From the IMG/VR virus record IMGVR_UViG_3300001335_000583, positions 14,362 to 78,361 of that record: 64,000 nt of DNA, one strand, 5' to 3'. The DNA is from a virus (taxonomy: Duplodnaviria > Caudoviricetes). A program made the position numbers and the translations under genes. Within the stretch, counting starts at the first letter, position 1. Every line of letters begins with the position of its first letter. This document shows, piece after piece, positions 7,420-64,000 of this stretch. Under the pieces are notes generated by a model. That model had not been told where the DNA came from, ran no database searches, and was given only the letters and a program-made list of their open reading frames with translations.

Positions 7420-10400
7420 ATGACAAACGAAAATAAAATAGCAGATCCTTCAAAAGAAGGAATAGGGGGGATTCGAGGTTTAAAGGTAGATAAAACCCAG
7501 CAAACTATAGATAGTATCGCGAATAAACTTCTTTAGCTGAACTTACCAAATGAAGCTGCTTTTAAAAACTTTAAAGAGGCTTCTATTTTAAATACTCCTA
7601 ACAAGAGGTATGTAGGAACCCCCGGATTAGGAGAAAGTGGGTTAGACTATGATATAACTCAGGAACAACAACTTCTTAATTTAGATAATACCCGTGGAGA
7701 ATTACAACCCTGGTACACACAAATTAGAAATGGTGTGGCTAAAGGGGCTGTACTGGCAGGGACTACTTTTGCAGATGGTTTCGGGGGTACTCTTATGGGA
7801 GCTTTAAATGTGCTGGGAAATATGGATGAAATTGCTCAAAGTGATAATTCCCTGAGGGAATTAGGTGATCAGTTCATAAACAATCCTTTTAGTACAACTA
7901 TGCAGGCCATCAATGATAAAGCTGAAGAGTTGTTGCCAAATTATTATACAGAGGCAGAGCAAACTTAGCCCTGGTGGAACCATGTATTTACTTCTAACTT
8001 TTTGGGAGATAAGTTCCTTAAAAACTTCGGGTTTGTAGTAGGGGCTGCTTACAGTGCCAAGGCTACAGCAGGGCTTGCAGCCAAAGCCATGAACCTTAAA
8101 AATGTTAGAAATGCTTTTAAAGGAGCTGTCACAACTGCTTCAGGGAGATTATTAAACAGTGGGGATGAAATCTACCAAGCCTATAGATCCGGAGATGCCT
8201 TTATTGACGGTGCCAAGCTTATGGATGATATGGGCAAAGCTGCAAAGAAGTTAAAAAATGCAGAGTGGGGACTTAAAACGATAGGATCTGTCAATGCAGC
8301 TATGGGAGAAGGCAGGATTGAAGCTATTGGTAATTCCAAAGAATGGTCTGAACTACAACATGCTCACGCGGAGGATAAGTTAAAAACAGATATAGACAGT
8401 CTTGAATCTCAACTTTATCAGGAACATCCAGAGTGGTTTCAGACTGTGGTAACACCTGAAGGAGATGTAGATGTGAGGTTAAATCACCCGGAAGGAGTGG
8501 CTGAATGGGAAAGAAGAAAAAGTGAAGTAGAGACAAATCATAACAAGACTTTAGAGGAGATCTCCAAGCAAAGAGCTTCTATGGCTAACTCTATGTTTCT
8601 GATGAACACGGGGCTTCTTTCTGCAAGTAACATGTGGCAGTTTGGAAGGTTTATTTCGGGTGGATATAACTCAGGCAGGATAGCTAAAAACCTGGTTACA
8701 GGTTCTTTAAAAGATGGCTACAAAGCTTCTGGCAAAGAGGCTAATAAAGCCTTGTTAAAAGCTGTATCCAATCCTTTTATGGAAGCACAGGAGGAGATGT
8801 CCCAGGCTTTAATTTCAGAAGCTACAGGGATGAAATCAGCTGCTGCAGTTAATAGTTTTCATGGAGCCAAGATTGATCCAGAAGCAGAAGAAGAAACTAT
8901 AGGATGGTTAAATGCTTTAAAGGATGGTTTTTCCAATACTTACGGGGATGTTCATGCCTGGGAAGAGGGTTTACTGGGATTTTTAACAGGCTCCATAGGT
9001 ATGCCTGGTGTTAAGACCAAGACTAATGCACAGGGAAAACAGGGTAAAGCCCTGACACTCCAGGGAGAGCTTTGGGACAATCTAAAAGAGTCCAAACAAC
9101 TCAGGGAAGAGGCTAAAACAGTAGCAGAGGCTCTGAATGAAAGAGTACAGTCTCCCGAATTTGTCAACTACTACCAGGGTATGATACGACACAATAAGTA
9201 TCAGAAAGATATGGATAAGTTCCTGGAAGAAGGAAACAACTTCGAGTTTAAAAACTCCCAGCACTCCCAGATGCTTTCTGATATCGTGATGTTTGAAAAG
9301 GCAGGAAGGATAGAAGATTTATATGATATTATACAGGAAGCGGGCAGTGTCACCAATGAAGATGCTTAGCAGATCAGGGAACAGGCTGTAGTTAAAGGTA
9401 TAAACAAAGAGATCTTTGCAGATAAAACAGACGAGCAGGTTATTGACCATGTAAAGAAACAGGCCGAAGAGTTGAAGGAGAAAGTAGAGCTTTATCAAAA
9501 GGTCTCTTCTGATTTAAAAAGCGTGTATGGGGAAGATCTTTCTGAAGAGTTTCTGGAAGAGATGACCTGGATGACTACCCAGCAACAGGATTGGGAAAAG
9601 AGGTTTAAATCCCTTTATGAAGATGTCAGTAAAGATCTGGATGATGTCATTATTAAGAATAAGAATCTTAAAATAGGAAGATTAAACTCCCTCAGTCCCA
9701 AGCAACTGCTGGATAATATGGCCAGGGAAGATGTTTTGAAAGTCCTGGATGGGGAGAGAATACGTCTTGAACAAGACAAGGATAAATCTGTTCGGAACAG
9801 ACAACTCTATCAAAACCTGGAAGATATGGTCAATATCTTTCAAGCCAGGGGTCAGATGATTGATAAGTTTCAACAACTATCCAAGAATCCAGGGGTGTTT
9901 ACCCAACAAACTCAGGACAGGATAAAGCAGATTATTGAGCAAAAAGCCCAGGAATAGATTGATAACACCGCGTCTACTTTGGAAGGAGTTACCACTGTTG
10001 CAGAGGTAAGGAATGGACTGAGAGATCTTGATGAGAAGGTCCGGGTAAAAGTAGTGGATAAGTTAAAAAAGAGTGAGAACCCCAACCTGGCTACTGTGTT
10101 TAAAAACTATGAGGATCTGGAGACAATGCAGTCTGGTGTAGAGGACTATGTTTTAAGAACAGAGGGGTCTCAGGGATTAGAAGATGCCAAAGAGGTTCTG
10201 GACCAAGCTATCGGGACTAATGAGTCTGTAGAAGACGTACAAGCTGCAGTACAAGCAACAATCAAACAGTACCAGGAAGTTATATCTCAAGAGAAGAAAA
10301 AGGGTGCAGATAGTACAGAGATGAAAAGAGATGTAATCTGGATGGAAGAGTCTGTACAACATCTCACTACCATGCTGGAAAGATACAAACGGAACATCCA

Positions 10401-54665: not shown

Positions 54666-54845
54666 GATTTTAATTTTTAAAGATTGATTTTTTTGGTTTT
54701 TTCTCTCTTTCAAGTTTGTCCTCTACCTTGGTAGAATACATACTCAACATTACAGCAGGTACTCTGTCTTCGCTGCTGTAGACAAGTTTATACAACTTGC
54801 CTTCAACTTTTTTGATCATACATTTTATGGATTTTAATAAAGATG

Positions 54846-55175
54846 TGGAGGCGAGAGGAGTCGAACCTCTGTACACATAATATTCACGCGTAAACCTTTT
54901 ACATGCTTAGTATATTTGAATTCTTACCAGAATAGGCTAACTGGTTAGTTAGCTCCACCACCCTGTTTTTAAGGAACAGGGAAACCTATAAAACATCACT
55001 ACTATTATGTTCCAAGGTCAGTAGCCAACCTGAGCAAGGATTACGCAGTTAAGCGTACTTCCTGGCTGGGCTGTAAGTTAATTACGTTGCCGGTTAAAAA
55101 TAAGTACAAGGCTCTCCAGCACGTTGCATGAGTTTAATTTGCTACTAATTACGTGGCTAACACCAATGCGCCCCC
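54846..55175 (-). ncRNA. ssrA: tmRNA (330 nt) with tag peptide GNVINLQPSQEVRLTA*
   Basis: 5' GGGGGCG pairs with 3' CGCCTCC-A, giving a G3:U70 wobble. T-arm AGAGG-TTCGACT-CCTCT. Resume context TTTTTAACC-GGC; tag ORF at 55041-55091. Confidence 0.9.
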
Positions 55176-55818: not shown

Positions 55819-56015
55819 TGTTTGAACTATGTTTGAACTGCAAAGATAATAAAATTCTCTAGATACAGTGAACTTGGAGGGACTCGAACCCCCAACCTCC
55901 TGATCCGTAGTCAGGTTTTAACCACATTTTATCAAGGTTTTATGCCTGTTTTATAGGCAATTTACACTACCTTTAGGCCATAAATATTTAAAATGTTTGA
56001 ACCATGTTTGAACCA
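55819..56015. mobile_element. attP-like site: 3' half of tRNA-Arg(ACG) core flanked by tandem arm-type repeats
   Basis: 55868-55915 on - reads CCTGA-CT-ACG-GA-TCAGG, then a T-arm and acceptor 3' strand; the 5' half is absent. TGTTTGAAC(T/C)(A/G) occurs twice at 55819-55840 and twice at 55994-56015. Confidence 0.8.
55839..55848 (-). promoter_or_regulatory. Bacteroidota -7 element TATCTTTGCA
   Basis: Matches TAnnTTTG; overlaps the left arm repeat; no clear -33 box. Confidence 0.45.
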
Positions 56016-56032
56016 ACTTTTTTGATACTTTC

Positions 56033-56332
56033 TCATAAAGAAAGTTCCGTATTTTCTGAAGAAGTCTGGGGAGCATTTACTTTCTTAATCTTAGTATTGT
56101 CATTTCTTGACCATGCTGAATTCAGAAAGAAGATACCCCGTTTCTTTTTCTTTAAGGGAGTAAAGTTGACACTATTACTGCCATACCATCTGATCATTAT
56201 GGCACAGGGTGATCTGTTAATCACTTGAGAAGCCATCATAAAAGCATAAGAGAGATTTTGGGGACATGCTTTAACTGCTTTATAAACTTCTTTTTCTTCT
56301 GCTCTGGTCCATGCGTCTTTTCTTGTTGTCAT
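56033..56332 (-). CDS. Small Myb/SANT-like (RsfA-type) DNA-binding protein
   Basis: RKDAWTRAEE...INRSPCAIMIRWY resembles the RQDAW...LNRT.AAC..RW pattern. Confidence 0.55.
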   Translation of the reverse strand: MTTRKDAWTRAEEKEVYKAVKACPQNLSYAFMMASQVINRSPCAIMIRWYGSNSVNFTPLKKKKRGIFFLNSAWSRNDNTKIKKVNAPQTSSENTELSL

Positions 56333-56337
56333 AAATA

Positions 56338-57618
56338 ATGAGTATTAAATTAATATTAAAGTCTTCTAAGATTTATGCAAATGGTAAATCTCCTGTCCTA
56401 CTTAGAGTTATCAAGGACAGGAAGGCTAAATATTTTAAAATTGGAGATGACAGGTATACCTTTGAAGCCAAACAATGGAGTGATGAATTCTCTCTTCTTA
56501 AAAGGGATAAGAGGCTTACTCCTGACTATGAAGATCTGAATGACTTCCTTAGCTCTAAATTCAAGCAAGCACAGGCTCTGATAGAAAAGTATGAAAAGAG
56601 TGGAAAGAGCTGGACCCTGGAGATGTTTGAAGCAGATTTCTTAAACTCCTTAAATACCTTATTAATTAAGGATTTTATACAGTTAAGGATTAAGGAAATT
56701 ACTAAATTAGGTAAGTATAAATCTGCGCAAATACTAAGTGAATTGCTAATACTGCTCCAAGCATTTTACTCAAATAGCTCTAAGTTAAGTGCTTCCAGTA
56801 TAGATTACAAGTTTATAGAGGCGTTTCATTACTATCTACATGCTGAACGTGGCAATAGTAATACCACGATAGGTATCTACCTCAGAGCTTTGAGATCTGT
56901 TCTAAATGAGGCAATTAACAGAGGAATTGGAAATAAAGATACCTACCCCTTTTCTAAAATGTACGGAGCTACCAAGGTTTTTAAAATCTCTCAGCTCAAG
57001 ACATCAAAGAAAAAGAAATACATTCCAAAGGAATATATCTTAAAATTGTACCATACACCATTTGATAAGCCCCATTTGAACTGGGCAAAGAACCTGTTCT
57101 TATTCTCATTCTTTGCAGGTGGCATTAACTTCAAGGACATGGCATATCTCACGGATAAAAACTTAAAGAAGCAGGTGACTGAGAATATTGAGATTGAATG
57201 TATCTGTTTTAATCGAAGTAAAACAAATGAATACATTCAAATACCTGTCTCTAAATATACCAGCGAGATCTTACAATGGGGTTATCTTAACAGTACAAAT
57301 AATAATAGGTATCTTTTGCCTATTATTTCCAATTTAAAAGTGAGTGGGGTAGCTCTTAATAATCATATATCACAAAAAAGAAAGAGACTCAACAATAATC
57401 TGAAGACTATTGCCAAATCTCTCTCTTTTCCCGAAGGATTGCTTAATATTACTACCTACTATGCCAGGCACTCTTATGCTACCACTCTTTTAAAGAAGGG
57501 AGCACAGGTTGAACTTATCAGGGAGGCACTGGGGCATAAAAACATCAAGACCACCCAGGATTACCTGGATAGCTTTGGGGATGAAACTTTATTAAGGTTT
57601 AATGAAGATATTTTGTAA
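56338..57618 (+). CDS. int: Tyrosine integrase (Bacteroidota type: arm-binding + SAM-like + catalytic domains)
   Basis: NGKSPVLLRV N-domain; NTTIGIYLRALRSVLN; GGINFKDMA; YYARHSYAT; ALGHKNIKTTQDY. Confidence 0.92.
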   Translation: MSIKLILKSSKIYANGKSPVLLRVIKDRKAKYFKIGDDRYTFEAKQWSDEFSLLKRDKRLTPDYEDLNDFLSSKFKQAQALIEKYEKSGKSWTLEMFEADFLNSLNTLLIKDFIQLRIKEITKLGKYKSAQILSELLILLQAFYSNSSKLSASSIDYKFIEAFHYYLHAERGNSNTTIGIYLRALRSVLNEAINRGIGNKDTYPFSKMYGATKVFKISQLKTSKKKKYIPKEYILKLYHTPFDKPHLNWAKNLFLFSFFAGGINFKDMAYLTDKNLKKQVTENIEIECICFNRSKTNEYIQIPVSKYTSEILQWGYLNSTNNNRYLLPIISNLKVSGVALNNHISQKRKRLNNNLKTIAKSLSFPEGLLNITTYYARHSYATTLLKKGAQVELIREALGHKNIKTTQDYLDSFGDETLLRFNEDIL

Positions 57619-58405: not shown

Positions 58406-58909
58406 TTACCTCGTAAAGTAAAGTTTAATGGTGATAGTATTGTCTGAAGACACCTTTAAGTAATCAGAATAAATACTCATATCTGAATTACTTTCATTAT
58501 TGTGCGAACTGCATGGTAACAAAACTGTACCATATAAAGCTAACTTTTCATACTCAACCAACACATCAGTAATAGGTTTACCTTCATTGTATTTCTTTAC
58601 ATACTTTTCAATAAAAGCTTGTGAAGGCTTTGGTAAACTTAAACTTTCATCTGTTGTAGCAATGAGTTTCTTACCTTTTGGTGTGAAATTAGTTTTATTA
58701 CCGCATTTACAAATATCATTTGTTAGAGTAATATACCAATCACCAGTTTTAATCTCATCATCAGATAAGATGTAGAGATGTTGCATTTCTCCTCTTGGAA
58801 TATCTTTACCTCTCTGATTATATACTAATCTCTTAGTATCTTTATACATTCCAATTTCAGTTGCTTTTTCATTAGTAGGAAGCATAACCACTTTACTTCT
58901 TTTAAACAT
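58406..58909 (-). CDS. Hypothetical phage protein
   Basis: VVMLPT...QHLYILSDDEIK.GDW...KLIATTD.SL.LP.PSQ.FIEKY pattern. Confidence 0.65.
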   Translation of the reverse strand: MFKRSKVVMLPTNEKATEIGMYKDTKRLVYNQRGKDIPRGEMQHLYILSDDEIKTGDWYITLTNDICKCGNKTNFTPKGKKLIATTDESLSLPKPSQAFIEKYVKKYNEGKPITDVLVEYEKLALYGTVLLPCSSHNNESNSDMSIYSDYLKVSSDNTITIKLYFTR

Positions 58910-63641: not shown

Positions 63642-63715
63642 GCTTCCTTAGCTCAACTGCATAGAGCATTGCCCTTCTAAGGCAAGGGTTACAGGTTGGA
63701 ATCCTGTAGGAAGCA
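63642..63715 (+). tRNA. tRNA-Arg(TCT)
   Basis: Acceptor GCTTCCT/AGGAAGC-A; anticodon arm TTGCC-CT-TCT-AA-GGCAA; T-arm ACAGG-TTGGAAT-CCTGT. Confidence 0.92.
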
Positions 63716-63746
63716 CTCATTCCCATACACACACAAAAATTATCTG

Positions 63747-63918: not shown

Positions 63919-64000
63919 TGCCCCTTAGCATAATGGCCAATGCACCGGTCTCTAAAACCGTTATCCCCCTGAAGGAGGTTATGTGGGTTCGAATCCCACC
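63919..64000 (+). tRNA. Amber suppressor tRNA, anticodon CTA (3' end beyond the window)
   Basis: D-stem GCAT/ATGC; anticodon arm (C)CGGT-CT-CTA-AA-ACCG; 21-nt variable region; T-arm GTGGG-TTCGAAT-CCCAC; T1 start. Confidence 0.85.

Follow-up and report, generated by a model that had tools for sequence, protein, structure and literature searches.

A predicted integration module aimed at tRNA-Arg(ACG) in a TAG-recoded, Steigviridae-like crAss phage

crAss-like phages have been described as incapable of lysogeny or as entering it at very low rates; integration is absent among their cultured members, and the prototype has a lifestyle resembling that of a phage-plasmid (PMC8375218, PMC10983915). 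The presence of integrases in certain crAss-like genomes has been noted (PMC9980608), and a 2026 mouse-gut survey found genes annotated as integrase, excisionase or repressor in Intestiviridae and the Zeta group, and rarely in Steigviridae (PMC13503771). Here, we analyse a locus of IMGVR_UViG_3300001335_000583, a linear IMG/VR virus record of 78,361 bases with an estimated completeness of ~77%. Our window is the 64,000-nucleotide stretch covering bases 14362-78361 of this record, and all positions are window positions unless another contig is named. A tyrosine integrase gene lies there beside a putative phage attachment site (attP), and an earlier prediction, made from the letters of the sequence, had proposed that the two form the integration module of a temperate, recoded crAss-like phage. 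Its premise that Crassvirales are generally regarded as non-integrating agrees with the common view (PMC8375218, PMC10983915) but, given the text of the survey (PMC13503771), no longer holds without qualification.

According to our analysis, this is probably a working integration module targeting the tRNA-Arg(ACG) gene of Prolixibacteraceae, carried by a TAG-recoded, Steigviridae-like crAss phage. The other Crassvirales with integrase annotations are alike in encoding an integrase and in having been suggested to be temperate (PMC13503771, PMC9980608). Unlike here, no attP, attB or host target is described for the crAss integrases in the available text of the survey, whose annotations are enriched in Intestiviridae and the Zeta group, whereas the present phage is Steigviridae-like and its predicted host belongs to a non-gut family (PMC13503771). 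Integrase annotations in other crAss families are thus known already and the mechanism is textbook; what is new is the host lead, a second phage with the same module, and relatives of the integrase that are integrated.

Recoding and lysogeny have been linked in Garnet and Topaz, two TAG-recoded, temperate 24-kb phages outside the crAss group, whose prophages are bounded by an integrase and a host tRNA gene; the same study proposes that a switch of genetic code separates lysogeny from lysis, and treats recoded crAss-like phages as virulent (10.1101/2021.08.26.457843). Garnet and Topaz resemble our phage in that late genes read TAG as Gln while the integrase is free of in-frame TAG. They differ in being non-crAss and in having been seen integrated, and also in that, here, in-frame TAG is absent across the whole early and replication region, integrase gene included, so that this gene shows no special TAG avoidance.

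Heterobivalent integrases of the lambda type (lambda, HP1, L5) act on a POP' attP, and some of them target tRNA genes. Our module is similar in its N-terminal arm-binding, core-binding and catalytic domains and in its arm repeats on both sides of the core, while it shares with the tRNA-targeting members an attP carrying the 3' part of the tRNA, through which the gene is restored; corynephage and Streptomyces-phage records even contain a tRNA-Arg(ACG) stretch 93-97% identical to the core. The phage integrase departs from these enzymes by its Bacteroidota-type arm-binding and SAM-like domains (PF17293, PF13102) and by a family-wide Asn at the first Arg, and neither accessory bending-protein sites nor an excisionase were identified in the phage module. 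Enzymes of the IntDOT and NBU1 IntN1 type, to which the widespread B. thetaiotaomicron integrase P0108 belongs, have the same domain build and Bacteroidota hosts. P0108 has the motifs RxKT, YxARHS, GH and TTxxY in common with the phage integrase, but is ~30% identical to it, and enzymes of this type move conjugative or mobilisable elements, not phages. NBU1 uses the 3' end of a tRNA gene.

The attP site, its integrase and the host target

Features of the module, in window coordinates
Feature	Position	Strand	Basis
Candidate P' arm, two tandem 11-bp repeats (TGTTTGAACTA, TGTTTGAACTG)	55819..55840	+	Motif scan; motif and 31-nt spacing shared by L049
attP core, 3' part of tRNA-Arg(ACG), position 26 to discriminator plus one base, 49 nt	55868..55916	-	Identical to host genes
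Anticodon stem-loop CCTGA-CTACGGA-TCAGG within the core	55899..55915 (anticodon ACG 55906-55908)	-	Read from sequence
Candidate P arm, two tandem 11-bp repeats (TGTTTGAACCA twice)	55994..56015	+	Motif scan
Myb/SANT-like small DNA-binding protein, 99 aa, divergent from the integrase	56033..56332	-	Weak Pfam Myb_DNA-bind_6 match
Tyrosine integrase, 426 aa, arm-binding, SAM-like core-binding and catalytic domains	56338..57618	+	Pfam, PHROG

The core reads, on the minus strand (55869-55915), as an anticodon stem-loop, variable loop, T arm, 3' strand of the acceptor and discriminator. The alignment to the Rfam tRNA model scores 27.2 bits and lacks the D arm, ARAGORN calls no tRNA at this place, and neither the window nor the complete 78-kb record holds a second copy of the core. 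The 3' half of a tRNA-Arg(ACG) announced by the original prediction is real and one base longer than the 48 nt given there: in an alignment including the flanks, phage and complete host genes agree at 49/49 bases (55868-55916), from just before the anticodon stem (tRNA position 26) to one base past the discriminator, where the two become unrelated.

When one genome per species was scanned (~185,000 genomes), the exact 47-nt core turned up in 12, always as part of a complete tRNA-Arg(ACG) gene; 11 are metagenome-assembled genomes (MAGs) of Prolixibacteraceae, Mariniphaga or unclassified Bacteroidales, and the last is a Cyclobacteriaceae MAG. A DNA search of 335 Prolixibacteraceae genomes, for which the best 150 matches were listed, gave nine genomes with a 100% identical core and about a dozen at 98%, while the remaining matches among these 150 are mostly 89-96% identical, with one longer match at 83%. 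Because the exact core is confined to few genomes and falls off within the family, it points to a narrow host group, and comparison with Bacteroidota tRNA-Arg(ACG) genes did prove informative about the host, as had been anticipated. Hence, the reading that we favour, and hold with reasonable confidence for module and host jointly, includes a Prolixibacteraceae host, a Mariniphaga-type member of the Bacteroidota from anoxic aquatic habitats. When 20 kb of DNA were used to search the family for CRISPR-type matches, the best 150 matches listed comprised nothing but the tRNA core and integrase homology; two candidates were scored per genome, so that spacers could escape.

Two further loci of this family involve the same tRNA. 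One genome has a tandem array of ~10 tRNA-Arg(ACG)-like copies, spaced by ~113 nt (G193:C1:819089-820153). Another has an island whose integrase, though distant, has the same build (L155, G269:C3, 15755-17236; 27% identical), along with three TGTACAA repeats and a partial tRNA-Arg(ACG) 3' fragment beside a host aldo/keto reductase gene, the core being present in that genome only as this partial copy. The fragment implies that another element targets the same tRNA.

The motif TGTTTGAACYR has exactly four occurrences in the 64 kb (55819-55829, 55830-55840, 55994-56004 and 56005-56015), which form, as described originally, two tandem TGTTTGAAC pairs, one on each side of the core. The second 9-mer of the P' pair ends 31 nt short of the tRNA discriminator position, while the P pair has the same orientation and lies 78 nt from the core. 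No other tandem pair exists in the 78-kb record. Across 2.1 Mb of collected loci, such pairs are confined to the phage lineage, bar four matches with two mismatches (three in bacterial loci and one further in L162, a phage contig presented below), where ~1 is expected by chance.

The integrase open reading frame (ORF) starts 422 bp from the core and has no in-frame stop. Its product contains, in this order, the Pfam domains Arm-DNA-bind_5, Phage_int_SAM_5 and Phage_integrase (29.2, 60.2 and 46.1 bits, all above cut-offs), and is also matched by PHROG integrase families, in agreement with the intact arm-binding tyrosine integrase expected about 420 bp away. In an alignment of 16 family members, it retains every invariant residue (R293, K295, Y374, R377, H378, H400 and Y409), of which K295, R377, H400 and Y409 align to the XerC, XerA and IntI4 structures.

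Between attP and the integrase, the Myb-like ORF is the only candidate accessory protein recognised beside the site. Its neighbours in a protein atlas are phage "Myb2" clusters, it matches no known excisionase family, and we regard it as a candidate directionality factor or regulator. Due to a two-base polymorphism at 56032-56033, its stop is removed in three other contigs, and the resulting 114-aa form overlaps the P arm pair.

From these elements, a conventional reaction can be proposed. After circularisation of the genome, the N-terminal arm-binding domain of the integrase would bind the two TGTTTGAAC pairs, while its core-binding and catalytic domains would bind the anticodon stem at its inverted CCTGA/TCAGG arms, which we interpret as core-type sites flanking a 7-nt crossover region. 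The strands of attP (55819-56015) would then be exchanged with those of the tRNA-Arg(ACG) gene of the host, within or near the 7-nt anticodon loop. Since attP reproduces the tRNA exactly from anticodon stem to 3' end, the host gene would be rebuilt at one junction; the other junction would hold a partial tRNA copy, the Myb-like gene and the integrase, and the Myb-like protein may have a role in excision or control.

Integrase relatives on bacterial islands and in sister phages

Ranked by similarity, the relatives of the integrase are an identical protein on contigs from three further samples, then a protein at 58% identity, then a series at 55-48%. The members of this last series lie on small islands of bacterial chromosomes made of the integrase, an HTH_17 gene and a few ORFs, and island-type integrases (E < 1e-60) are carried by 15 of the 335 Prolixibacteraceae genomes. 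On the islands, a 3' fragment of tRNA-Met is found ~150-165 nt upstream of the integrase and on the opposite strand, a topology that is also that of the phage. In one case (L016), a perfect 52-nt direct repeat marks both ends of the island, its distal copy being inside a complete tRNA-Met. This is the arrangement predicted for the integrated phage; close relatives of its integrase thus demonstrably integrate at tRNA genes.

The tRNA-Met islands (L016, L050-L053, L029, L064 and L066) and the phage have in common the three integrase domains and the stem CCTGA/TCAGG, which in the tRNA-Met targets encloses a different loop. The islands differ by their size of a few kb, by an excisionase-type HTH_17 gene downstream of the integrase, by the absence of a Myb-like gene and of TGTTTGAAC pairs (arm repeats matching the phage motif were sought in L016 and nothing convincing was found), and by a core ~150 nt from the integrase, instead of ~420 nt in the phage. 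In the phage, moreover, the "element" is a crAss phage of roughly 100 kb and the target is tRNA-Arg(ACG).

The integrase at 58% identity (P0002) belongs to a second phage, represented by a 12-kb contig from another run (L049). Gene order is the same in the two phages, and their helicases, DnaB proteins and Myb-like ORFs, the latter at the same place, are 63%, 73% and 40% identical, respectively. Between helicase and integrase, L049 has tandem TGTTTG(C/A)AC pairs at 8151-8170 and 8417-8436, with a core at 8200-8246 that is a 3' fragment of tRNA-Met(CAT), starting one base inside the stem and exact in 25 of the 335 Prolixibacteraceae genomes. The P' pair is again 31 nt from the tRNA end, while the P pair is 171 nt from the core in L049 versus 78 nt in the window; hence, arm motif and P' spacing are conserved between the two phages, but the flanks are not. 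In the integrase tree, the two phage proteins are sisters (SH-aLRT 93) nested within the bacterial island clade. Their arm-binding domains are 62% identical to each other but 37-48% identical to those of the island integrases, which fits the shared arm motif, whereas their catalytic domains are ~54-60% identical to island integrases of the same clade, the similarity between the two phages being about equal. A third member of the lineage (L162, helicase 60% identical) has one perfect tandem pair, AGTTTGAACCC-TGTTTGAACCA, at 229-252.

Taken together, the L049 module, the exact cores and the integrated relatives indicate that the module is an inherited and maintained one, of the kind that integrates. 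Its origin is best read as a single acquisition, long ago, from an integrative element of a host, with vertical transmission in the phage genome ever since. We also lean, if only slightly, towards a truly temperate lineage, in which the integrase was retargeted between tRNA-Met and tRNA-Arg(ACG) by a swap of the core while keeping its arm sites and CCTGA/TCAGG stem sites. The comparison suggests a possible route for such a change of target: the stem sites would stay, and the overlap would be supplied by whichever tRNA fragment the phage carries.

A recoded, Steigviridae-like phage

The major capsid protein gene sits in the record just upstream of the window. Its product is 70-73% identical, over its full length, to those of cr111_1, cr128_1 and crAssBcn isolates (73% for cr111_1) and matches phrog_11589 with an E of 5e-106. 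Likewise, the order and strand of the helicase/HKD, DnaB, primase, ThiF and UDG genes are those of cr111_1 (Steigviridae, Lahndsivirus). Under a TAG=Gln translation, the fragmented frames of window 1-25611 merge into giant ORFs, among them two of 2,623 and 2,077 aa without a family assignment, while the frames of window 26-61 kb are open under the standard code. Considering capsid identity, the replication block and the fusion of ORFs, the phage is therefore a TAG-recoded, Steigviridae-like crAss phage, and the original prediction of a recoded crAss-like phage is confirmed.

attP is embedded in this genome, with glucosaminidase, PRTase, helicase and DnaB genes to its left and small early ORFs and tRNAs to its right, a layout again similar to that of cr111_1. 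The site is identical in assemblies from other samples, and the junctions on both sides of the module recur in the independent assemblies of at least four of them, as expected from the earlier description of phage genes on both flanks and of an unintegrated attP.

Several other features of the genome can be mentioned. A phage-encoded transfer-messenger RNA (54843-55175, minus strand) lies ~700 bp from attP; it scores 61.8 bits with Rfam RF00023, above the gathering score, and is unreported by ARAGORN. Near the window end, a tRNA-Arg(TCT) (63642-63716, plus strand) is followed by a second tRNA-like gene (63926-63999, plus strand; 37.4 bits), which is cut by the window end and is probably an amber suppressor; the pair mirrors the tRNA-Arg and tRNA-Gln that lie ahead of the early genes of cr111_1. 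In the part of the record upstream of the window, a gene for a GIY-YIG homing endonuclease (L002 3090-3734), which contains in-frame TAGs, directly precedes the capsid ORF; the capsid genes of cr111_1 and cr128_1 are interrupted by GIY-YIG-type endonuclease genes. Finally, the early region has a small indel hotspot at 58423/58424, where one related contig (L014) has 37 additional bases and another (L013) diverges too.

Integration weighed against other readings

The phage can very probably insert into the tRNA-Arg(ACG) gene of its host, and such integration may lead to stable lysogeny. Several results count against this. By the family standard, the integrase appears intact, but the classical hexad is incomplete, the first Arg being Asn and the second His being Tyr (Y374); this is true of 16/16 family members, common Bacteroides integrases included, and the invariant R293 might substitute for the first Arg. 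On the host side, all nine Prolixibacteraceae genomes with an exact match have a single core copy and an unoccupied site. A capsid query against the 335 genomes of the family found no close prophage, only three distant matches at 27-37% identity, and none of the 120 best helicase relatives is on a contig larger than ~118 kb. Patterns combining the core with the P' arm, or the P arm with the core, had 0 matches in IMG/VR, and the core with the P' arm had 0 matches in JGI metagenome contigs. These scans evidently miss near-identical records, since L013, whose attP is identical, exists yet was not matched, and they amount to weak evidence. With the same blindness to close records, and within assemblies, neither an attL/attR pair nor the second core copy of a lysogen was found, so that the junctions or prophage copies for which the original prediction called did not materialise; every contig recovered through exact look-ups with the integrase and a 67-aa neighbour either had the attP form or was interrupted in or close to the site. 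Moreover, the 24 small ORFs at 53-63 kb, many of which belong to no family, include no recognisable helix-turn-helix repressor, antirepressor, S24 peptidase or HTH_17 excisionase. With no junction, prophage or repressor found, the term "temperate" would be an extrapolation from the module.

One of the three distant capsid matches is a 35,982-base contig of a Prolixibacteraceae MAG bin (L042/L043, G008:C69), with 36 kb of large same-strand ORFs and a crAss-type capsid gene (28% identical), devoid of visible host flanks or tRNAs. The two breaks of SRR1179181 contigs inside the core were considered as a sign of integration and rejected: they fit a co-assembled tRNA gene sharing 55876-55916. With k=31 and a shared block ending at 55916, the right contig should begin at 55887, which it does; the left contig ends at 55905, not 55897, hence a tRNA gene differing at 55875.

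Among the alternatives, the one that survives best, though it is unlikely, is that an inherited module has lost its role in lysogeny, either as a decaying relic or because the integrase is kept for another task, such as multimer resolution, in a lytic or carrier-state phage. The unsuccessful searches for a junction, a prophage or a repressor would all be explained, cultured Steigviridae do not lysogenise (PMC8375218), and L162, which seems to have an arm pair but no core, could hold a decayed site. Yet the core of a relic would drift, whereas 49/49 bases match host genes here and the differing core of L049 is exact as well; both integrases are full length and keep all invariant residues in spite of their divergence to 58%, and the two phages have kept arm motif and spacing but not the flanks. 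As for a multimer resolvase, it needs neither a tRNA-derived core nor arm sites.

A somewhat less probable reading takes the TGTTTGAAC pairs as operators of another phage DNA-binding protein, e.g., the Myb-like one, with the integrase acting on the core alone. L162 speaks in its favour and also counts against integration: its perfect pair, 230 nt from the contig end, has no tRNA-like core within 900 nt, and may reveal another role for the repeats; the Myb-like ORF of the variant contigs also runs over the P pair. Against operators, the pairs flank the core in both integrase-bearing phages with identical P' spacing, they are found nowhere else in the 78-kb genome, and the integrase has an arm-binding domain, the domain in which the two phage integrases specifically resemble each other most.

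Finally, that the integrase, the Myb-like gene and the att site are a separate small integrative element moving by itself is highly improbable: even though the nearest integrase relatives are small bacterial islands rather than phages, the integrase is the only plus-strand gene of a minus-strand block, cr111_1 has no integrase in the annotated 25 kb around its helicase, and 0/88 more distant crAss relatives (helicase at most 52% identical; collected with an alignment query, a single-protein helicase scan of IMG/VR having given no relatives) have one within 10 kb of the helicase, the single core copy leaves no attL/attR pair around the module, no direct repeats bound it, its G+C (0.34-0.35) is that of its neighbours, and L049 has its module at the same place with replication genes diverged as much as the integrase. 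The original prediction had itself named such an inserted element as what would overturn it; a module at the same position in the comparably diverged L049 argues instead for a single, ancient acquisition, after which the phage lineage has transmitted the module vertically.

This probable integration module bears on the question of how crAss-like phages manage to persist in the absence of lysogeny. The system is fully specified, with an attP, an attB in named host genomes, an intact integrase and a sister phage having the same arms and another tRNA core, and integration is thereby directly testable. It also allows an uncultured crAss phage from the environment to be assigned to a host by sequence, and extends integrase modules to a Steigviridae-like branch, where they are rare according to the survey (PMC13503771). 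If the lineage is indeed temperate and retargeted, the two phages would offer a natural integrase pair for the study of shifts in core specificity, and the phage described here would be a crAss phage whose split between lysogeny and lysis might follow the switch of genetic code.

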